DNA of 64,000 nt, taken from assembly GCA_964035575.1 (NCBI GenBank), contig OZ037842.1:930001-994000 (forward strand), given 5' to 3'. The translations under genes and the position numbers were made by a program. The stretch is from Rhynchopus sp. YZ270_cl-10 (lineage: Eukaryota). The notes beneath the pieces are model-generated. The model searched no databases, was not told the origin of the DNA, and saw only the letters and a list, made by a program, of their open reading frames with translations. Positions 1-63,640 of this stretch are shown here, one piece after another. Every line of letters starts with the position of its first letter. Within the stretch, counting starts at the first letter, position 1.

Positions 1-1635
1 GGCGTGTCAGACAGCTCGGCCACGTAATCGTTGAAGTCCTTTACCCGCGACACAATCTTGGAGAAGAATTTTTCACCTTCGGACTCTCGCTGACCCCTAT
101 CGTGTACGTCAAGGAAAGACTCCTCCTGCTGACGGCGCATTGCTTCATTCACACCATGATGATCCAGCAGGGCACGTAACTGGGAGAGATGCGTAAGGAT
201 GGATGCTTGTAGTGGGTACACACCTTGTCAATTTCGGCACCGATCTGTTGGATCTTCGTTAACGAAGATTGCCTCTCGTGAGCCAGGGCAGTCGCCACCT
301 CAGGGTTGGTGGACCGGAGGTTGGCATACGACTGCTTCTGGTCCACCTGCAGTCGTCGAGGTGTTTTGTGGCGTTTGTTTGTTGATAATTATGAGTCTGT
401 ACTCCACATACCAAGTCTATGACCTGCTTCTCTTGGTCTTCTTGAGCCTTCAGCACCTGAAAATACCGGTGTGCGGACATGTGAAGTGCTGCTTGCGACA
501 CTGACACACGCCGATCAACATCTGCACCATGCCGTTCCAACGTTTCAGCCGTCAACGACGTGAAGTCCCGCACAAACTGTGCTGTACTCTCTGCCAACCT
601 CACTGTGGCAGCCGCACCCTCAGACTTTTCCTCAAACAATGCAGCCTCGTTAGCAACGAGACTTTCAAAGTGGTGCAACGCTGCTTCTACATGATTTGCC
701 GTCGCTTTGTTGAGCCTGCATTGCTTTGCGGTGTTGCACATCTCCTTTGTAATGTTTGTGAAGTCGTTGTACTTCAGAAGGATTTCCTCCAGAGTTGTTT
801 GCGCCTGCTTCCGGAGAGACTTCACTTGATCACTAAGTTCTTTCACAGCCTTAGCACTGTGTGCGTGCTCACCGAGTAGGCCGCACGGATCCCCTTCACA
901 TAACTCCCTCATGACCTCTGCCGCCCGGTGTGCCACATCGGCGTACTTTGCTGACGATCTTGCAACCTCAGCATATTCCCCTGCTGACGCCTGGATCGCG
1001 TCGTTACGCACTGACAGCTCAACAACCTCTGCGCGGCTGTGCTCCGCTCCTGCAACCTTCTCAGCACCGCTTTTCAGTACTGCATGGTGGCCCACTGTAT
1101 CGACATACCCACTCTCGCTGTCGTCAACACTATCGGCGTCATCACTGTTGATGTTAGGCATTCGTCGCGAAGCTGCAGAGGCAGCATCAGATGCCGCAGT
1201 CAGTGCTGCCCGTACACGTGGCAGCTGCAGGGAACGAGGATGTACAAAGGGAAGCCCCTCGTAGGAGTGCAGTATTTCCACGAACTTCTCAACGGCCTGC
1301 ACCTGCTCGTTGTTCAGTGCGGTGTCTGCAGTCATCTGTGTAATGGCCCGTATGGAATGCAGAATGTCGTCATTCGGAGGGTACTCACGGCCCATTTCTG
1401 ATACGATCATGCTATCAGCACTTTCTGCAATGTAGGCCTTGCCAGCCAACTCCATCGCCTTCATCTTAACTTGTTCAAAGGCGCGAATGTTATCTTCCTC
1501 ATACTCACTTCCGTGCGATCCAGGAACGCGCTTCACACCTTCTAAAAAGCGATCCAGCTCACCTAACATGCCCACATGGAACTGGCGTAACGCCTGAATA
1601 TCAAAGAGAGCTGGCACATCCCCACCACTCGACAT
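1..1635 (-). CDS. Spliced gene for an alpha-helical/coiled-coil-rich protein of unknown function; exons 1635-412, 346-224, 179-<1 (3' end outside the window)
   Basis: ATG at 1635 with an in-frame TAA five codons upstream. 408 codons run to a GTATGT donor. Removing two phase-0 introns gives an open frame ...QVIDL|VDQKQSYANLR...AEIDK|LRALLDHHGVNEAMRRQQEESFLDVHDRGQRESEGEKFFSKIVSRVKDFNDYVAELSDT to the window edge. The protein is A/E/L/Q-rich. Confidence 0.85.
180..223 (-). other. Spliceosomal intron, 44 nt
   Basis: Minus strand AAG|GTGTGT...CTCTCCCAG|TTA; removal restores an open frame to position 1. Confidence 0.8.
347..411 (-). other. Spliceosomal intron, 65 nt
   Basis: Minus strand TTG|GTATGT...ACTGCAG|GTG; removal joins the 259..1635 ORF to the 149..346 frame. 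Confidence 0.85.
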
Positions 1636-2529
1636 TGTATGTGCTCCTTTTTATACGTATTCCAGGAACATGTTTCCCCACAAAAACTACCTCTGTTTGA
1701 GGGGAGGATAATGTGGATGGGGAGCATTAGGGGTGCGGTGGGTGGGGACAAAATCACAAGCAAAACAGAGCACAGGAGGACAACACATTTGCCACGGATT
1801 CCCCATATCCTTTTGCCAGTGTCACGACTTCCGTATTTTCACATTCACCTGACAAAAAAATAAAAAGAGTACGAAAAAAACCAAAAATAAAAGGGTAATA
1901 AACATAGACACTCGCAAACTGAAACTGCAAAATACTCCAACACAACCAAGCAACAAACGCACCATACAAACATATTCTGAGCGAATACTCCATCAAAAAG
2001 ACAAAAATACAATACATCCCTAAAACGAAAAACTTCAGTCCGCGTTTCCTAGCCAAATACTGTTTACGCGAGACCACCTTAATAAGAAGTTATTACCAAT
2101 ATTCACACACCGTCAGGACGACACAGATGACAATCCCAATGTTTCATCACGTACTTCTTTCCTGACAACATCACTGCCGACGGTCCATATTGAAACCACC
2201 CGTACAGGTCCTTTACATGTCGTTGATACAAACGGGAAAACGAAATAATTCCCAAACACTTGTGATTAGAGTCAAACGTATCCTCCCCACCCAGTATCCT
2301 AACGCCAAGACAGACCCCCATAAACCTCCACTACACTTTCCAACGCAACGTTTTCGTACTCATAAAACGGACGCTTTACAACGTATCATTTTCGTGGTTC
2401 AAAAAAAGAAAATATACAACGCACTGTTTTCGTTCTTCGAAAAGGCACACTTCTCAACGGTTCGTTTTGTTGCATCTAAAAGACACACTCCCAAACAAGC
2501 AAATTACGTTACTCTAAACCCACGCGATA

Positions 2530-5500
2530 AAAATGGATCGATCAAACGGGTGCAAAACCACGCGTCTATAACAGCACGATGAAACGCGTCCAAAACAGCG
2601 CATCGAAAACAGCGCGATGAAACGCGTCCAAAACAGCGCGTCGAAAACAGCGCGATGAAACACTTCCAAAACAACGCATCCAAAACAGCGCGATGAAACG
2701 CGTCCAAAACAGCGCATCGAAAACAGCGCGATGAAACGCGTCCAAAACAGCGCATCGAAAACAGCGCGATGAAACGCGTCCAAAACAGCGCATCGATACG
2801 AGCGCGATGAAACACTTCCAAAACAACGCATCGAAAACAGCGCGATGAAACGCTTCCAAAACAGCGCATCGAAAACAGCGCGATGAAACGCGTGCAAAAC
2901 AACGCATCGATACGAGCGCGATGAAACGCGTCCAAAACAGCGCATCGAAAACAGCGCGATGAAACGCTTACAAAACAGCGCATCGAAAACAGCGCGATGA
3001 AACGCGTCCAAAACAGCGCATCGAAAACAGCGCGATGAAACGCGTCCAAAACAGCGCATCGAAAACAGCGCGATGAAACGCTTCCAAAACAGCGCATCGA
3101 AAACAGCGCGATGAAACGCGTCCAAAACAGCGCATCGAAAACAGCGCGATGAAACGCGTCCAAAACAGCGCATCGAAAACAGCGCGATGAAACGCTTCCA
3201 AAACAACGCATCGAAAACAGCGCGATGAAACGCTTCCAAAACAGCGCATCGAAAACAGCGCGATGAAACGCTTCCAAAACAACGCATCGAAAACAGCGCG
3301 AAGAAACGCGTCCAAAACAACCCATCGAAAACAGCGCGATGAAACGCTTCCAAAACAACGCATCGAAAACAGCGCGATGAAACGCGTGCAAAACAACGCA
3401 TCGATACGAGCGCGATGAAACGCGTCCAAAACAGCTCATCGAAAACAGCGCGATGAAACGCTTCCAAAACAGCGCATCGAAAACAGCGGGATGAAACGCT
3501 TACAAAACAGCGCACCGATAACAGCGCGATGAAACGCGTCCAAAACAGCGCATCGAAAACAGCGCGATGAAACGCTTCCAAAACAGCGCATCGAAAACAG
3601 CGCGATTAAACGCGTGCAAAACAACGCATCGAAAACAGCGCGATGAAACGCTTACAAAACAGTGCACCGATAACAGCGCGATGAAACGCGTCCAAAACAA
3701 CGCATCGAAAACAGCGCGATGAAACGCGTGCAAAACAACGCATCGATACGAGCGCGATGAAACGCTTCCAAAACAGCGCATCGAAAACAGCGCGATGAAA
3801 CGCGTCCAAAACAGCGCATCGAAAACAGCGCGATGAAACGCGTCCAAAACAACGCATCGATACGAGCGCGATGAAACGCGTGCAAAACAGCGCATCGAAA
3901 ACAGCGCGATGAAACGCTTCCAAAACAGCGCATCGAAAACAGCGGGATGAAACGCTTCCAAAACAGCGTATCGAAAACAGCGCGATGAAACGCGTCCAAA
4001 ACAGCGCATCGATAACAGCGCGATGAAACGCTTCCAAAACAGCGCATCGAAAACAGCGCGATGAAACGCTTCCAAAACAGCGCATCGAAAACAGCGCGAT
4101 GAAACGCGTCCAAAACAGCGCATCGAAAACAGCGCGAAGAAACGCGTCCAACACAGCGCGTCGAAAACAGCGCGATGAAACGCTTCCAAAACAACGCATC
4201 GAAAACAGCACGATGAAACGCGTCCAAAACAGCGCATCGAAAACAGCGCGAAGAAACGCGTCCAACACAGCGCGTCGAAAACAGCGCGATGAAACGCATC
4301 CAAAACAGCGCATCGAAAACAGCGCGATGAAACGCTTCCAAAACAGCGCATCGAAAACAGCGCGATGAAACGCTTCCAAAACAGCGCATCGAAAACAGCG
4401 CGATGAAACGCGTCCAAAACAGCGCGATGAAACGCTTCCAAAACAGCGCATCGAAAACAGCGCGATGAAACGCTTCCAAAACAGCGCATCGAAAACAGCG
4501 CGATGAAACGCTTCCAAAACAGCGCATCGAAAACAGCGCGATGAAACGCGTCCAAAACAGCGCGATGAAACGCTTCCAAAACAGCGCATCGAAAACAGCG
4601 CGATGAAACGCGTCCAAAACAGCGCGATGAAACGCTTCCAAAACAGCGCATCGAAAACAGCGCGATGAAACGCTTCCAAAACAGCGCATCGAAAACAGCG
4701 CGATGAAACGCTTCCAAAACAGCGCGATGAAACGCTTCCAAAACAGCGCATCGAAAACAGCGCGATGAAACGCGTCCAAAACAGCGCATCGAAAACAGCG
4801 CGATGAAACGCTTCCAAAACAGCGCATCGAAAACAGCGCGATGAAACGCGTCCAAAACAGCGCGATGAAACGCTTCCAAAACAGCGCATCGAAAACAGCG
4901 CGATGAAACGCTTCCAAAACAGCGCGATGAAACGCTTCCAAAACAGCGCATCGAAAACAGCGCGATGAAACGCGTCCAAAACAGCGCGATGAAACGCTTC
5001 CAAAACAGCGCATCGAAAACAGCGCGATGAAACGCGTCCAAAACAGCGCATCGAAAACAGCGCGATGAAACGCGTCCAAAACAGCGCATCGAAAACAGCG
5101 CGATGAAACGCGTCCAAAACACCGCATCGATAACAGCGCGATGAAACGCTTCCAAAACAGCGCATCGAAAACAGCGCGATGAAACGCTTCCATAACAGCG
5201 CATCGAATACAGCGCGATGAAACGCGTCCAAAACAGCGCGATGAAACGCTTCCAAAACAGCGCATCGAAAACAGCGCGATGAAACGCGTCCAAAACAGCG
5301 CTTCGAAAACAGCGCGATGAAATGCTTCCAAAACAACGCATCGAAAACAGCGCGATGAAACGCGTCCAAAACAGCGCGATGAAACGCGTCTAAAACAGCG
5401 CATCGAAAACAGCGCGATGAAACGCTTCCATAACAGCGCATCGAATACAGCGCGATGAAACGCGTCCAAAACAGCGCATCGAAAACAGCGCGATGAAACG

Positions 5501-7931: not shown

Positions 7932-8726
7932 TTTAGTTTTGCTAATCCTTAACACTCCCTATTGATCGTGGTTGATGTATGCAAAGATCTGAAAAGAAAC
8001 GAACAGATTCCCACGAACATGTGTCAACGACACAACCAACACAACGCTACCGATGTGTGCGCAACGATCTGAACGCAACGAACGTAACCAACCGAACACA
8101 ACCAACGCATCTCATCCAACACAACGGAACCGATGCGTGCGTCACTATCTGTACGCAACGAACGTAACCAACCGAACACAACCAACGCAACGCAACCGCT
8201 CCATACGTTGCGCTCTGTACGTAACGATCTCTACACAACGAACGCAACGCATGCAACACTACGTAACCTATGTGTACGTAGCGATCTGCATGCAACGAAC
8301 GCTACGTAACGAACGCAACGCAACCAACGCAACGAGTGGTTACAAACCCCCACGCATGGTTCTCACACCGCGTTGGCACGTTTCCCAAGCCGCAAACCCG
8401 GTTACCTGCCTGAAAAACCGTGTTTTTGGCCAAAACGCCTGTTTTCCCTGTAGAATCCTTAAGAATCCTTAAGGAACGCACGGTTCCTAAGGCATTTTAC
8501 ACGTAAACTCGCGACACGAAAATAGGAATTAAAAACTAATCTCTCAGCGATCTGATTTAGTAAGAACTCGATTTTTGGCCCTATCTTTCCAATGCCGAAA
8601 AAATCTTACACTTTGGCGCCTCTGCGAGAAATGTCATTTTTTGGGGTACCCCGTCGGGGGTGCCAAGGGGTGGGGGGGTACGCCACAAAAGCAACCTTAA
8701 AAACCTTAACACAGAGTGTTAAGGAA
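7932..8726 (-). mobile_element. Helentron/Helitron2-like non-autonomous element, subfamily C (795 bp), intact copy
   Basis: Minus strand starts TTCCTTAACAC-TCT-GTGTTAAGG (hairpin) and ends GAGTGTTAAGG-ATTAGCAAAACTAAA. Removing it restores satellite GATGAA^ATGCTTCC with no duplication (T^T on the element strand). Confidence 0.75.
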
Positions 8727-14571: not shown

Positions 14572-17006
14572 ATGCTTCCAAAACAACGCATCGAAAACAG
14601 CGCGATGAAACGCGTCCAAAACAGCGCGATGAAACGCGTCTAAAACAGCGCATCGAAAACAGCGCGATGAAACGCTTCCATAACAGCGCATCGAATACAG
14701 CGCGATGAAACGCTTCCATAACAGCGCATCGAATACAGCGCGATGAAACGCTTCCAAAACAGCGCATCGATAACAGCGCGATGAAACGCTTCCAAAACAG
14801 CGCATCGAAAACAGCGCGATGAAACGCGTCCAAAACAGCGCATCGAAAACAGCGCGATGAAACGCGTCCAAAACAGCGCGATGAAACGCGTCTAAAACAG
14901 CGCATCGAAAACAGCGCGATGAAACGCTTCCATAACAGCGCATCGAATACAGCGCGATGAAACGCGTCCAAAACAGCGCATCGATAACAGCGCGATGAAA
15001 CGCTTCCATAACAGCGCATCGAAAACAGCGCGATGAAACGCGTCCAAAACAGCGCTTCGAAAACAGCGCGATGAAACGCTTCCATAACAGCGCATCGAAT
15101 ACAGCGCGATGAAACGCGTCCAAAACAGCGCATCGATAACAGCGCGATGAAACGCTTCCAAAACAGCGCATCGAAAACAGCGCGATGAAACGCTTCCATA
15201 ACAGCGCATCGAATACAGCGCGATGAAACGCGTCCAAAACAGCGCGTCCAAAACAGCGCGATGAAACGCTTCCAAAACAGCGCATCGAAAACAGCGCGAT
15301 GAAATGCTTCCAAAACAATGCATCGAAAACAGCGCGATGAAACGCGTCCAAAACAGCGCGATGAAACGCGTCTAAAACAGCGCATCGAAATAGCTATTTC
15401 CCTCCCTCCCGCCAGAGCCCGAGGGATCCCTTGAGGGAGGTCAGGGCAGCCCGAGGGCCGAAGGCCCGAGGGCGCCCTGACCTCCCGAAAGGGAATCCCG
15501 AGGGCCAAGGGAGGGAGGGATGTAGCTTTGTGACCCGACGAGGTCGTTTTCTACCCGAACTGCCTGCAAACAAGCGCTTTTGTGGTGTTTTGTGTACAAA
15601 CACGTAGGTTTTTCGGCCCACATGGGTACCATCGTTTGTGGCCCACGGACGCCGAAAAGCATGCGAATACGCTTTTCGAGTCGCAGAAACCAGGTTGTGG
15701 GCCGTTTTAAAAAGTTTTTGGCCGGTTTCAGTCACCAAAACGCACATTCTCTCGCGGGAATTTTTGGTGCTCTCAAGGGAATCCTCTTAGCTCTCAAGGG
15801 AATCCCTTGAGACCTCTGGAGGGTTACAAACAGCGCGATGAAATGCTTCCAAAACAATGCATCGAAAACAGCGCGATGAAACGCGTCCAAAACAGCGCGA
15901 TGAAACGCGTCTAAAACAGCGCATCGAAAACAGCGCGATGAAACGCTTCCATAACAGCGCATCGAAAACAGCGCGATGAAACGCGTCCAAAACAGCGCAT
16001 CGAAAACAGCGCGATGAAACGCTTCCAAAACAACGCATCGAAAACAGCGCGAAGAAACGCGTCCAAAACAACGCATCGAAAACAGCGCGAAGAAACGCGT
16101 CCAAAACAGCGCATCGAAAACAGCGCGAAGAAACGCGTCCAAAACAACGCATCGAAAACAGCGCGATGAAACGCGTCCAAAACAACGCATCGAAAACAGC
16201 GCGAAGAAACGCGTCCAAAACAGCGCATCGAAAACAGCGCGAAGAAACGCGTCCAAAACAACGCATCGAAAACAGCGCGATGAAACGCTTCCAAAACAAC
16301 GCATCGAAAACAGCGCGAAGAAACGCGTCCAAAACAACGCATCGAAAACAGCGCGATGAAACGCGTGCAAAACAACGCATCGATAACAGCGCGATGAAAC
16401 GCGTGCAAAACAACGCATCGAAAACAGCGCGATGAAACGCGTCCAAAACAACGCATCGAAAACAGCGCGATGAAACGCTTCCAAAACAGCGCATCGAAAA
16501 CAGCGCGATGAAACGCGTCCAAAACAGCGCACCGATAACAGCGCGATGAAACGCGTCCAAAACAGCGCATCGAAAACAGCGCGATGAAACGCGTGCAAAA
16601 CAACGCATCGAAAACAGCGCGATGAAACGCGTCCAAAACAACGCATCGAAAACAGCGCGATGAAACGCTTCCAAAACAGCGCATCGAAAACAGCGCGATG
16701 AAACGCGTCCAAAACAGCGCACCGATAACAGCGCGATGAAACGCGTCCAAAACAGCGCATCGAAAACAGCGCGATGAAACGCGTGCAAAACAACGCATCG
16801 AAAACAGCGCGATGAAACGCGTCCAAAACAACGCATCGAAAACAGCGCGATGAAACGCTTCCAAAACAGCGCATCGAAAACAGCGCGATGAAACGCGTCC
16901 AAAACAGCGCACCGATAACAGCGCGATGAAACGCGTCCAAAACAGCGCATCGATACGAGCGCGATGAAACGCTTCCAAAACAGCGCATCGAAAACAGCGC
17001 GATGAA
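14572..17006. repeat. Satellite A array interrupted at 15389-15829
   Basis: 38-bp tandem units. Confidence 0.98.
15389..15829. mobile_element. ~440-bp non-autonomous Crypton-like element with long terminal hairpin (about 15393-15526)
   Basis: Clean insertion into satellite CATCGAAAACAGCG. No TIRs. Ends overlap as AAATAGC/AAACAGC. Hairpin centred on GGGCC-GAA-GGCCC; CTCTCAAGGGAATCC repeated near the right end. Family assignment is structural inference. Confidence 0.6.
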
Positions 17007-18464: not shown

Positions 18465-18834
18465 CATGGCTAGGAGTGTGGCAGCCACACGTGGCAGCGT
18501 GGCTGCCACGTGGCTGCCACGTGGCAGCCACACAGGTGGTCAAAAAGCCAAAAAATAGATGTCCATTTTGAGACACTTTTGGTACCAACTTTTCCTTAGG
18601 GATTTTAACTTTTGTGTTAGCAAAAAAAGCAAAAAAGTTTGGTTGCTCTACGGTCAACCTGGAAATCTACTAACGTAGAGGTCATGGCTAGGAGTGTGGC
18701 AGCCACACGTGGCAGCGTGGCTGCCACGTGGCTGCCACGTGGCAGCCACACAGGTGGTCAAAAAGCCAAAAAATAGATGTCCATTTTGAGACACTTTTGG
18801 TACCAACTTTTCCTTAGGGATTTTAACTTTTGTG
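18465..18834. repeat. 152-bp direct repeat (18465-18616 and 18683-18834) rich in CACGTGGC/GCCAC motifs
   Basis: Both copies run CATGGCTAGGAG...TTTTAACTTTTGTG and appear identical. Confidence 0.95.
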
Positions 18835-18920
18835 GCGCTTCGCGCCGAAGGGCTTCGCCCTTCGGCGCGAAGCGCCACAAAAGTTAAAATCCCTAAGGAA
18901 AAGTTGGTACCAAAAGTGTC
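18790..18920. repeat. Perfect palindrome, 64-bp arms with a TTC loop
   Basis: GACACTTTTGG...GCGCCGAAGGGC-TTC-GCCCTTCGGCGC...CCAAAAGTGTC, checked base by base. Confidence 0.97.
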
Positions 18921-19126
18921 CATTCTTTTGCGAGGAGTGGAGGACTTCTGAAATCCTGCCACTGTCAAAAGAGAGAGTAGGAAGTATTTAGTGTGGTTTC
19001 TGTGGTGTAGTGTAAAAAAATGGGTAGGGTTTAGGGAGGAGAACAGGGGTTGATGTATGAAATGAAAAGTTCAAAAATAATCTTTGTTTTGTATACTCAC
19101 ATATTGTCTGTAGTGATCGTGTGGGC

Positions 19127-19372: not shown

Positions 19373-20065
19373 AATCGCGGAATTCGATTTTCCCTTACGA
19401 TCCTTATTTTTTTTTTTTTTTGGCCCTTTTTTCCTAGTTCTGGACCAATCTCTCAAATAAAGCCAGAATTTTCGACTTTTGAGCCTTTTTAAGCAATTTC
19501 CCTGCGTATTTCTGCAGGGAATAATCAAAAAAACGCAATTTTACCTTAGAAAAAGCGAAATTTTCGCAAAGACAAAAAAATTGAAAAATTTGAAAATTGC
19601 GAAATTCGGTTTTCCCTTACGATCCTTATTTTTTTTTTTTGGCCCTTTTTTCCTAGTTCTGGCCCAATCTTTCAAATAAAGCCAGAATTTTCAACTTTTG
19701 AGCCTTTTTAAGCAATTTCCCTGCATTTTTCTGCAAAAAATCATCAAAATAACTCAATTTTGCCTTTGCGAAAATTGAAATTTTCGAGACAAAAATTTCA
19801 AAAATTTCACAGTCATAAAAACGCTCAGGAAAAAATCGGGGTCCGTTTTTTGGGCAGAGAAGTGCGTTTTAGGTGCCCACAGGTGGTCAAAACATCAAAA
19901 TTTTGCGTTTTTTTTGCACTTTTGGACACCCAAGGATCCACTATCAGGGGTAGCCTGAGATTTCCCTTTGCGAAAAAAAAAATTTTTTTTTTTCGAAAAA
20001 TTTTTTTTTCGACAACTACTTTCTGAGGTACCAGTTAAGGGCGGAAACTCAAAACCGCGTTTTAG

Positions 20066-21010
20066 ATGACCACAGATGCTCAAAAGTGCCCGATTTTGCT
20101 TTTAATGAGCTCAAATCGTCAAAATAGGGTGCTCACAAAAAAATTTTTCAGAGTTCAGTTAGCACAGAAATCGCCGCTCCCACATGTGGCAGACGTGGCA
20201 GGTGTGGCAGCCACGTCTGCCACACCGTGGCGGTCGTGGCTGCCACGACCGCCACGGTGTGGCAGGGGTACCGCCACGTTGACCAGGAGAAAGCGTGGCA
20301 AGCGTGGCTGCCACGCGACCGCCACGCCCCTGCCACACCTCGACGTCACCGCCACACGTGGCAGCCACGCTCCGAGCCATGCTCCTCCTCCTCCGCAGCA
20401 ACGCAACAATGTGCCGCCACTGCAGTTGCATGAGGACGAGGAGTTTCAGACAAGGCTGGCGATGGAAGTGTGCGAGGAGGATGAGCAGGAAAGTGCCCAT
20501 GACTTGCAGCAACCCCTCAGTGATGCACCACTGCAGTTGCATGGAGACATCCCTGTACGCGACGTTCTGCAACAGAAGCCCGGGAAACCTGTGGACGTTC
20601 CGCGAACAGACGGCTGCTTTTTCTCCGCCCTGCTCGCGGCGAGCTCAACTACATTCAGCTTCTCCTCCGTTGAGTTTTTCCGCGAAACCGTGTTTGATCC
20701 ACCAAGAGTGTCGACAACGATGCGTGGGTTCGCGCAGGCTGCGTGCGCCAGTGACAATGCGGATGGGAAGTATACGACAGTCAAGGAATGGCAGGACTGG
20801 CACAGAAAAAGCTTGACGTCGGCTGACTCGCATGCTATTTCTTGGACTGCTGAATTCCTGCGAGTTCAAATCAACATTGTTGAGCTGACAAAGGAGGGAA
20901 CGCGCTCCGTCAAGCAGATCACCCCCACAACTGTACAACACACGGTCTGGCTGCAACAATTCGGAGGTACACACTTCCAGCCTACCCAGGCGTTCACCGA
21001 GGATCCATAA
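20066..21010 (+). CDS. OTU-like cysteine protease (deubiquitinase) domain protein with an upstream UIM-like motif; true start uncertain
   Basis: VPRTDGCFFSAL (Cys codon 20615), ADSHAISWTAEFLRVQINIV and VWLQQFGGTHFQP (His codon 20972) follow OTU motif order and spacing. EDEEFQTRLAMEVCEED is UIM-like. The N-terminal ~100 codons overlap GTGGC/GCCAC repeats and may be non-coding. Confidence 0.7.
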   Translation: MTTDAQKCPILLLMSSNRQNRVLTKKFFRVQLAQKSPLPHVADVAGVAATSATPWRSWLPRPPRCGRGTATLTRRKRGKRGCHATATPLPHLDVTATRGSHAPSHAPPPPQQRNNVPPLQLHEDEEFQTRLAMEVCEEDEQESAHDLQQPLSDAPLQLHGDIPVRDVLQQKPGKPVDVPRTDGCFFSALLAASSTTFSFSSVEFFRETVFDPPRVSTTMRGFAQAACASDNADGKYTTVKEWQDWHRKSLTSADSHAISWTAEFLRVQINIVELTKEGTRSVKQITPTTVQHTVWLQQFGGTHFQPTQAFTEDP

Positions 21011-21228
21011 CTTGGTTAAGGTTAGATTTGGGGGTTGGGTTTGTTTGATTGAGATTGGGGAAGGGTTGGGTTGGGGTATTAGATTCAGGGAGTGGGTTGG
21101 TTTGGTTAGTTTGGTTATGATAGTTAGATCACTCATGTTTCTTCTTCTATGTTTTGTTCATTTCCTTTATGTTCTGTTTACTTTGACACATGTGTCTGAC
21201 GAGAGCCACATTCATCATCTGTTATTCC

Positions 21229-21259
<31 letters not shown>

Positions 21260-21421
21260 AAAAAAAAAGAGGCCAAAAGAAAAAGAAAAGGCCCGCAAAA
21301 ACAAAAAAAAAAAAAAAAAACAAAAAAAAGGCAGTGGCCCCATCAAAAAAATCACTGTCCAAAAAAAAAAAAAAAAAAAAAACAAAAAAAAAAAGAGGGC
21401 AAAAGAAAAAGAAAAGGCCCA

Positions 21422-21456
<35 letters not shown>
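21229..21456. repeat. Poly-A-rich low-complexity tract with an internal ~120-bp duplication
   Basis: AAAGAGG(C/G)CAAAAGAAAAAGAAAAGGCCC occurs twice among long A runs. Confidence 0.9.
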
Positions 21457-21459
<3 letters not shown>

Positions 21460-21992
21460 GGTAAAACGCCACCTGGGGTCACAAGGCCCAGGCTCCTACC
21501 TTTACAGGTAGGGGAGCTGTTGAGTGACCCATAGTCCACGACGTGGAAACATGTAGACGTGTAGTGAAGAGAACCGGTTCGTAACGTTCAAATCGTACGC
21601 GTTGTTTTGACCTTTTTTTGCAGAAAAATGCAGGGAAATGCCTTAAAAAGGCTCAAAAGTCGAAAATTCTGGCTTTATTTGAGAGATTGGTCCAGAACTA
21701 GGAAAAAAGGGCCAAAAAAAAAAATAAGGATCGTAAGGGAAAACCGAATTCCGCGATTTACAAATTTTTGAAATATTTTGTCTTTGCGAAAATTTCGATT
21801 TTCGCTAAGGTAATATCGCGTTTTTTTTGACCTTTTACTGCTGAAGAATGCAGAGAAATGCCTTAAAAAGGCTCAAAAGTTGAAAATTCTGGCTTTATTT
21901 GAGAGATTGGTCCAGAACTAGGAAAAAAGGGCCAAAAAAAAAAAATAAGGATCGTTAGGGAAAATCGAATTCCGCGATTTACAATTTTTTTT

Positions 21993-61933: not shown

Positions 61934-62641
61934 CACAAAACTAAATTTAACCTCATTTTTTATTTTTCAGTTGTGATCCAGTTTTCATGTTTAGTTATGA
62001 AAAGGGGCAGCACACAGATGGTTCATTGTAATGTTTTTCCACAGAACAGACTCGTGTCTCGCAAACTAGAAAACGCAAATGACTAAAAATTGTTGAAAGG
62101 AAAATGGACGAACATAACAGTGTGGTATACAAAAGGGACTATAATTTTTTTTTTCTTGTGACCGACCGTTCTTGCGCAAGTCTCTTGTCTGGACTTTTGG
62201 GTGGAAGGGATTGTGGAGGTGTGGCGGACCGCGACTTCATTCCCAAGCCTCCGACGTGGTTTTTCCGAGGAACAAACAGTACGACATTGCTGATTATCTT
62301 CTTTTTTCTCTCTTTTTTTTTTTTTATTCCACTGGGAAATAAAGTATACGAAGGATTTGGCACTTTTAGCGGGATTCTTTTTAATGATAATTTCACGCAG
62401 TTTTTTTATCGCGAATTTATAACCCGCTCATTGAACTTTATTTCACGCGTTTTTCACTTTTTTTCACAGCAATTCCTTCAGAGCGGGATTTTATTTTTGT
62501 TTTTTTCACGCTAAAACAGGGGTTTTATTTGGCGATAACTTCACGCTAAATTTTGGTACATCCTGCACCACCACCCGCCTAAAAATTGAAAATTTCGAAT
62601 TTTTTTTGCCCTTTTCCCATTTTTTTTCTGACACATGCAAC

Positions 62642-62954
62642 ATGCCGAAGGATGTAAGACGCAAACGGTCCTCCGACAGGAGATGGACAAGCACTACAGT
62701 GGTTTTGCTGAAGGACTAGCATTGTCGACACCGTACGTCCGTGAATGGGACCGCTTTTTAAGGAATTCATTGGCAAGCCTGACGGTAAGCCCACGGAAGC
62801 CGACTTCGTTTCGTATATAGTGTATCTCCGTGACGATCTCACTATCAAGACGAAGGACACACCACCCCCTTTACTTCATTGTGAGGAAGGTGGTGGCTGG
62901 CATGATATTCTGTGATGGGCGGGGATCTTCTGAATGTGTCTCGCTCTTGCACGA
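62642..62954 (+). pseudogene. Frameshifted remnant resembling the N-terminal (core-binding) domain of a tyrosine recombinase
   Basis: Reading across the T5 run at 62755-62759 gives STPYVREWDRF/KEFIGKPDGKPTEADFVSYIVYLRDD, a Y..W..F..F...PT...F..Y..YL pattern. No catalytic R-H-R-Y domain is visible. Truncated by a nested insertion. Confidence 0.4.
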
Positions 62955-63342
62955 CAGCCATTTCCTGACCTCCCGCTAGCACCCGAGGGGACACTGAGGT
63001 GGCGAGAGGTCGGGATGTAGCTTTGTGTACCGTTGAGGCAGCTTTCCAAACCCGACCACACGCTGCGCTACGCGCTATGCGTACACGTGGTGTGGGCTTT
63101 TTAGGCTACATACTGTACGCGCTACACACAAAATGCCGTTGTTGTGTGTGTAAAAACGTGGGTTGCGTGGTACTGCATGGGGTCACACGTGCACCACCCT
63201 GTGGCTCACACATGGTTCTGCCACTCCAAAAATGCGTATCCCACCCCACATACCAGGGTATGGGCCAATTCACCAGTTTTTTGCAGGTTCCCAGCGAGCA
63301 AAAGCTAGCGGGAGGGTAATAAGAGCTACCTGGAGGGACACA
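62955..63342. mobile_element. Diverged relative of the 15389-15829 element, nested in the Crypton-like element
   Basis: Shares left end AGC(C/T)ATTTCC..CCTCCCGC, internal GGGATGTAGCTTTGTG and right end CTGGAGGG..AC; hairpin centre shorter. Confidence 0.6.
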
Positions 63343-63598
63343 TTCTCGTTAGTTATTGCACAATAAATGAGTCCCGCTAAAAGTGCCAAATCCTTTCGTA
63401 TACTTTATTTCCCGTGAAATAAAATTACGTATTCACCTCCTTTTAGCGGATTATTTTGCGATACTTCACTTATTTTTTTCCCAGGCTCGTGCACTCAATT
63501 TGCCTCGCTTCGCTCGGCAAATTAAGTAGCCCTCGCCTGGGAAAAAAATGCGTGAAGTTATCGCAAAATAAAACCCCGCTAAAAGGAGGTGAATAAAT

Positions 63599-63640
<42 letters not shown>

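Follow-up and report, generated by a model that had tools for sequence, protein, structure and literature searches.

A likely tyrosine-recombinase-moved, multicopy element with a long terminal hairpin and mirrored ends in Rhynchopus sp. YZ270_cl-10

The window analysed here, a stretch of 64,000 nucleotides from Rhynchopus sp. YZ270_cl-10 (contig OZ037842.1), contains at 62322..63600 a multicopy element whose gene is broken and which is likely a mobile element moved by a tyrosine recombinase. We are confident that it is a mobile element of the recombinase type. We marginally favour the reading that it is a non-autonomous Crypton-like tyrosine-recombinase transposon, in which the joined ends and an internal copy of them would constitute a folded single-stranded attachment site. 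By analogy, the element would work like a Crypton with DIRS1-like ends, and it is filed here according to this mode of working and not as a member of a known group.

The 64-kb window consists almost wholly of a 38-bp satellite array and interspersed repeats, and the element is located in unique sequence immediately beyond the array. The satellite, the poly-A tails and the length of the contig (2.27 Mb) fit a eukaryotic source. It is about 1.28 kb long, and no strand is assigned to it as a whole. On the plus strand it is bordered by a run of 12 T's on the left (62314..62325; target-side and crossover region) and by a run of 39 T's on the right (63601..63639; target), and how many of these T's are owned by either end cannot be fixed.

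The far (left) end of the element, 62322..62381 on the plus strand, is found inverted at 63365-63424 (92% over 61 columns, E = 4.5e-17), while 63417-63449 mirrors the right end. Because the left end is mirrored directly at the foot of the hairpin, the sequence formed when the two ends are joined agrees with the internal site right through the junction, as the sequence-only reading had stated; this ICR-like inverted copy of the end-to-end junction occupies 63365..63449, with no strand assigned. In addition, a partial inverted terminal repeat (ITR) pairs 62363..62406 (plus strand) with 63542-63585 over 44 nt at 82%, and is supplemented by shorter arm-like subrepeats at 62482-62497 and 62519-62546, also on the plus strand. 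A 10-nt motif is common to all four arms, namely at 62363, 63374, 63440 and 63576. If the junction is drawn with four T's, inverted half-sites that can be read directly from the sequence flank an 8-nt spacer, which agrees with the internal copy at its AAA side only. When the ends are joined in silico, the GA strand folds into a single rod of about 150 bp that runs through the junction, with an energy of -123 kcal/mol.

The arms of the long terminal hairpin span 63417..63608, and the structure is steadier on the minus (GA) strand, where it contains two GA:GA mismatches. The folding energy of 63436-63601 is -54.4 kcal/mol on the plus strand (z -12.4) and -61.9 kcal/mol on the minus strand (z -13.9), so that the minus strand is favoured by 7.5 kcal/mol; on either strand, 0 of 200 shuffles equal these values. 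The 166-bp hairpin with TC/TC mismatches and a TTC loop, corresponding to GA:GA and GAA on the minus strand, is thus real (z -12 to -14). Its tip, at 63502..63518 on the minus strand, is a GCGAAGC mini-hairpin closed by a GA:GA mismatch. The second GA:GA lies deeper in the stem, and the outer TC/TC mismatch pair is located at the ends of the motifs at 63481-63488 and 63533-63540. The polarity is the same, as had been claimed, in a companion 437-bp element of the same layout (15391..15827, plus strand; ‘15.4-kb element’): in both elements the GA strand starts with the hairpin, and A runs flank both.

The idea that the GA/GAA tip by itself is the signature of a recombinase had to be abandoned, as such tips are common in viral contigs that lack any long stem. 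Among 123 viral loci, TC is found at the two free tip positions in 87 of 134 matches, and a centred long stem beside the mini-hairpin tip is found in none. Two viral arm scores exceeding that of the window (108 vs. 102) arise from off-centre alignments and not from hairpins. In 119 prokaryotic loci, the top arm score is 52, compared with 117 for the 62322..63600 element. DNA patterns derived from the element have no match in metagenomes or in viral contigs, the tip of the 15.4-kb element has none in viral contigs, and matches of the hairpin element to Rfam fall far under the gathering scores. According to PMC13037366, tips of the GCGAAGC type are extraordinarily stable mini-hairpins known at ssDNA origins, where the motif is primase-associated and SSB-excluding. 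Since the mini-hairpin is generic and is known at such origins, it points to a single-stranded phase and not specifically to a recombinase. In one 403-kb viral contig, a short repeat based on this mini-hairpin tip is dispersed over many places (loci L003, L004, L029, L038, L076, L097, L100, L107, L114 and L122).

The ORF remnant lies on the plus strand, as the sequence-only reading had stated, and runs through three frames (62635..62955, with breaks near 62757 and 62870); it contains no catalytic domain. The remnant is probably what is left of a tyrosine recombinase's N-terminal, core-binding domain (Phage_int_SAM-like), and the earlier description of it as recombinase-like is supported by the ESM Atlas, by phage tblastn and by a core-binding profile. 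In the ESM Atlas, the top matches of the middle piece are integrase N-terminal SAM clusters (0.93), and the 10 best family-bearing matches all fall in that SAM clan; the first match has 109 features in common with it, fewer than the 170 that members of one family usually share, and a value of 0.9 is attained by 4-10% of shuffles. The best of three phage tblastn matches (E 2) falls within the N-terminal region of a protein annotated as integrase. The profile was built from nine core-binding domains that were chosen without use of the query, namely: eight plasmid integrases (of 28 records) and the YR fragment of locus L191. On this profile, the X-bridged read-through of the remnant scores 4.5 bits, compared with 7.1 for a true integrase domain, and 1 of 1000 shuffles scores as high (686 scored at all). 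Mosaics score above 2.3 bits only when the first two frames are kept, while the third frame adds almost nothing (4.5 vs. 4.3). The YR N-terminal domain that seeds the profile is presumably of the DIRS type. On a two-sequence CryptonA N-terminal profile, a weak test, 463 of 1000 shuffles score as high as the remnant; the DUF3504 region itself is absent from the element.

Searches with standard resources gave no further identification of the remnant. In Pfam, which the sequence-only reading had named as a check, the pieces of the remnant have no match, and they have none in PHROGs, PDB sequences or plasmids. The AlphaFold model of the 56-aa piece (pLDDT 66, pTM 0.39) has no Foldseek match. Word-index searches for an intact relative found none, one of them returning only read-throughs of the same family, and a full HMMER scan returned only the remnant's own cluster and two repetitive proteins, which were rejected on inspection. 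Locus L124 was likewise discarded as a related locus, being a 14-residue, pattern-selected match with no Pfam family.

The claim that the element is unrelated in sequence to the 15.4-kb element is correct for its outer shell, the ends of which give no blastn match, but not for its interior. The segment 62955..63341 (plus strand) is a degenerate relative of 15391-15827, with a local alignment score of 127.5 compared with a mean of 32.8 and a maximum of 55.5 in 200 shuffles; 227 of 300 aligned columns are identical, with many gaps. This nested segment keeps both ends of the 15.4-kb element and a collapsed hairpin whose centre is deleted, mirrors its own junction weakly (score 32), and carries its GA strand opposite to that of the outer element. 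Its start coincides with the end of the ORF remnant. Judged from these alignments, only the outer shell appears to be independent of the 15.4-kb element. The predicted history is an insertion of a relative of the 15.4-kb element at the present end of the recombinase ORF, followed by the spread of the composite. The 15391-15827 element itself interrupts the AAAA of a satellite unit and has AAA on either side, and since 574 satellite units keep the site uninterrupted, its empty allele is visible in the window.

Protein look-ups indicate that the family is dispersed. The ORF piece 62745-62912 belongs to a nine-member cluster that is found on 25 contigs at 96-98% identity, while the controls, one a host gene and the other an ORF that crosses the junction with the left flank, are each found on one contig. 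The description of a mobile multicopy element agrees with this contrast of 25 contigs with one per control ORF; it should be noted that these counts concern proteins, the DNA and the ends of the copies not being visible in them. A second cluster (4 sequences on 11 contigs) starts in the remnant, crosses the nested segment and continues to 63363, and the composite is therefore the amplified unit. In P0014 and P0017 (62830-63363), one frame stays open for 177 codons through the nested insert in 9 contigs, perhaps by chance; this read-through has no Pfam or PDB match. We do not regard the 177-aa P0014 as a real protein, given this missing support and the fact that the frame is broken twice in the copy of the window.

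A scan with the tip of the 15.4-kb element, covering part of the metagenomes, yielded at least 122 loci: 56 of a family W, 27 of a family G and 39 others, which were scored for arm length only, L160 excepted. Because the search pattern included the tip mismatches, their presence in these loci is not evidence, in contrast to the second GA:GA pair, which lies outside the pattern and is present in 4 of 5 hairpins. The GA strand folds better in all five, by 1.4 to 8.5 kcal/mol, with small margins (1.4 and 3.0 kcal/mol) in two of them. In family W, 57 of 58 assessable copies have a common start base, with 51 different flanks, and 36 of 44 complete copies are 311 bp long; the boundaries of this family are thus fixed, and they fall at the half-sites. 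The joined ends of family W correspond to the internal inverted site except for 2 extra bases, and head-to-tail junctions exist in L126 (two) and L132 (one); in the fold of its joined ends the foot is paired, but there is no single clean rod. Family G shows the same junction mirror in 6 of the 6 copies displayed. One of its stem pairs is changed on both sides in 5 of 15 copies, two-sided changes occurring in only 2 of 60 stem pairs, and no autonomous element is found among its 27 loci. A match between junction and internal site is thus present in 62322..63600, the 15.4-kb element, family W and family G. The claim that unrelated families share this design consequently stands in part: the design recurs in sequence-independent families, including family W, but 62322..63600 is not fully independent of the 15.4-kb element.

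Family W also includes copies with an intact gene. L191 and L194, both 1.9 kb long, share the ends of the family and carry one ORF of 463 aa that matches DUF3504 (E 8e-35) and Phage_integrase (E 1e-9) and contains the recombinase residues R219, H344, R347, H370 and Y379; no reverse transcriptase and no further ORF of at least 90 aa is found inside them. Judged by these domains and residues, the enzyme can be taken as an intact CryptonA (DUF3504) recombinase. The frame is open in L138 and L143, with a shift near the start, and L195 is truncated. The ORF remnant gives no BLAST alignment with this CryptonA enzyme and does not match it, and family W is therefore an analogue and not a relative of 62322..63600. 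The gene of family W is on the GA strand, starts 181 nt from the hairpin end and reads away from the hairpin. It had been claimed that the hairpin lies downstream of the gene and that its bottom strand folds best, as in attC. This geometry holds for 62322..63600 but is reversed in family W, so that attC-like polarity is not a rule and the likeness to attC is one of analogy only. What does not vary is that the GA strand bears the hairpin at its 5′ end; a location behind the gene is not constant.

A few copies of family W differ in arrangement. In L238 and L239, which are adjacent and probably stem from one event, the hairpin has the reverse orientation relative to the body, and the change occurs at its foot; such flips could change which strand bears the stable hairpin. 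L229 is a copy whose partner in the junction is an internal secondary site similar to the far end, which gives a shorter tandem unit. Beside the intact copy in L191, at 363-3142, are a frameshifted second DUF3504 recombinase and a separate recombinase fragment of the Phage_int_SAM type.

We propose that the minus (GA) strand would become single-stranded and fold. The inner arm would be the pairing partner of the near end, and the adjacent 60 nt that of the far end, which would bring both ends side by side. A recombinase supplied in trans would then join the ends and free a single-stranded circle, with the junction in a stem of about 150 bp. The GCGAAGC tip and the GA:GA pairs would stabilise the GA strand alone. 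In the folded site, one strand exchange with a poly-A target would be possible and a second would not, because the 8-nt spacer matches its partner at the AAA side only. Insertion by the recombinase is predicted to be into A/T runs, and resolution would be by replication or repair, as for attC and CTX phage. We lean, somewhat more than evenly, towards the folded single-strand step itself.

The element resembles Cryptons in several respects: it is likely recombinase-only, has no visible target-site duplication, may have a short run shared by both ends, and exists in many non-autonomous copies. No reverse transcriptase or second transposase is found in 62322..63600, which is a deleted copy. The T runs on both sides are compatible with the 4-6 bp direct repeat of Cryptons but are unparseable. 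In PMC3212892 (Kojima and Jurka 2011), animal Cryptons are reported as lacking terminal repeats, and the words ‘hairpin’ and ‘palindrom’ are absent from this article; the available part of PMC8969392 gives Cryptons only a short direct repeat. In contrast to the published animal Cryptons, and to a description of Cryptons as free of inverted or long terminal repeats, 62322..63600 combines a partial ITR with a mirrored junction and a long hairpin. Its remnant is unlike the CryptonA N-terminus, whereas the CryptonA family W shares its end layout. Since the DUF3504 family W has the mirrored junction, the published criterion that Cryptons lack terminal repeats may be incomplete. CryptonV is described as targeting microsatellites (PMC8869645, PMC5753468); the copy at 62322..63600 likewise lies in a simple repeat, a poly-T run, and the two are set side by side by description only. 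The literature searched, a scope outside which fall Repbase Reports, Dfam, subscription journals and supplements, yielded no description of this end layout for Cryptons. Some Crypton-derived database repeats are noted as palindromic.

The ends closely resemble those of DIRS1-like elements, which have, according to PMC3266345, ITRs of 66-316 bp, extensions, abutting ICRs near the 3′ end and NTT ends; ICRs are assigned to DIRS in PMC13465315 and PMC6681497 as well. In 62322..63600 we find an internal region near the 3′ end that is complementary to both termini, with ICRs of 60 and about 90 nt, lengths that are within the DIRS1 range, as well as extensions, NTT ends and the four-arm motif. The differences are that the 1.28-kb element contains no gag, RT, RNase H or MT, that its ITR is just 44 nt at 82% plus shorter subrepeats, and that its right ICR runs on into a tight hairpin with a GAA tip. 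With attC and the CTX attP, the element shares an imperfect palindrome favouring one strand and a short homology on one side of the crossover (PMC4792948). The same article describes for attC and, in part, for CTX phage a single exchange of a folded site followed by replicative resolution. However, 62322..63600 is eukaryotic and would have its full site only after the joining of its ends. As distinct from attC, the position of the hairpin relative to the gene is not fixed, and there is no integron integrase or cassette array.

These resemblances allow other explanations. The element could be an internally deleted, non-autonomous DIRS1-type retrotransposon, with a true ICR that circularises minus-strand cDNA and a hairpin stable on the cDNA strand. 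The extensions, the partial ITR (44 nt, 82%), the two abutting ICRs, the NTT ends and the four-arm motif all fit the DIRS1 anatomy given in PMC3266345. Furthermore, the GA strand is the strand that a cDNA would be. The remnant scores with the profile seeded by a YR domain that is presumably DIRS-type, and not with CryptonA. On the other hand, only about 310 nt separate the left end from the start of the recombinase ORF, no ORF recognised by Pfam precedes this start, the ITR is short and partial, and the same layout is present in family W, which is RT-free, so that reverse transcription is not required for the layout. We therefore consider a DIRS1-type origin unlikely.

A classical double-stranded Crypton route, with a duplex circle as the excised form and integration at A/T runs, in which the internal copy and the hairpin would not be the substrate of recombination but would have an accessory role (in binding, in inversion or in priming of the second strand), also appears rather improbable to us, even though a duplex circle, proposed by analogy, is the published model of Crypton transposition (PMC3212892). 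In its favour, the tip is a widespread motif, known as primase-associated and SSB-excluding in ssDNA origins (PMC13037366), and the flipped hairpin of the adjacent copies L238 and L239 is as expected of duplex inversion between sites. It leaves unexplained, however, the exact 60-nt mirror of the far end beside the hairpin foot and the strand-specific mismatches in unrelated families. It would be more surprising still if the remnant were captured debris or a chance likeness and the shell were moved by another enzyme, of the HUH rolling-circle or an unknown type. All standard profile searches of the remnant are blank, the interior already carries one passenger, and one Helitron type is described with asymmetric inverted repeats, hairpins and T targets (PMC8969392). 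Yet the shell layout matches in detail that of a family encoding only an intact tyrosine recombinase, and three weak signals agree in indicating the N-terminus of an integrase, with position and order as they should be.

For the favoured reading, a Crypton-like transposon with a folded attachment site, the conserved end design names a concrete substrate, namely the folded GA strand across the joined ends, and family W provides an intact 463-aa enzyme and a 311-bp cargo with which the idea can be tested. If true, eukaryotes would have to be added to integrons and CTX phage as a setting of single-strand recombination by tyrosine recombinases, and the ends of Cryptons would be linked to the ICR of DIRS1. 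The layout also offers a rule for the classification of gene-less repeats. The copy at 62322..63600 is a dead composite; its main additions are that a second class of recombinase is probably involved and that the gene can have the opposite polarity. It is conceivable, though on balance doubtful, that more than one recombinase class of eukaryotic recombinase-only transposons uses a folded ssDNA site made of the joined ends and the internal mirror copy, in the manner of integron cassettes and CTX phage, and that the DIRS1 ICR was inherited from such transposons and is not a device of reverse transcription; 62322..63600, in which DIRS-like ends and a recombinase remnant of non-CryptonA type occur without RT, would then be a living intermediate.

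Several other features of the window were also observed. A separate long palindrome at 18815-18925 (centre about 18860) has tips of the GCGAAGC type and lies inside duplicated sequence. The ORF 20426-21010, which by eye we take to be OTU-type protease-like with an acidic ubiquitin-binding-like motif, has no Pfam match; long A runs follow it (poly-A from 21230), and it lies inside inverted repeats at about 19400-21990. On the minus strand, 259-1635 is a single-copy ORF of 458 aa that forms a cluster of one, with no Pfam match above threshold. Finally, 7958-8713 and its copies, up to 54490, are higher-order satellite units of several hundred bases that occur in both orientations within the 38-bp array.
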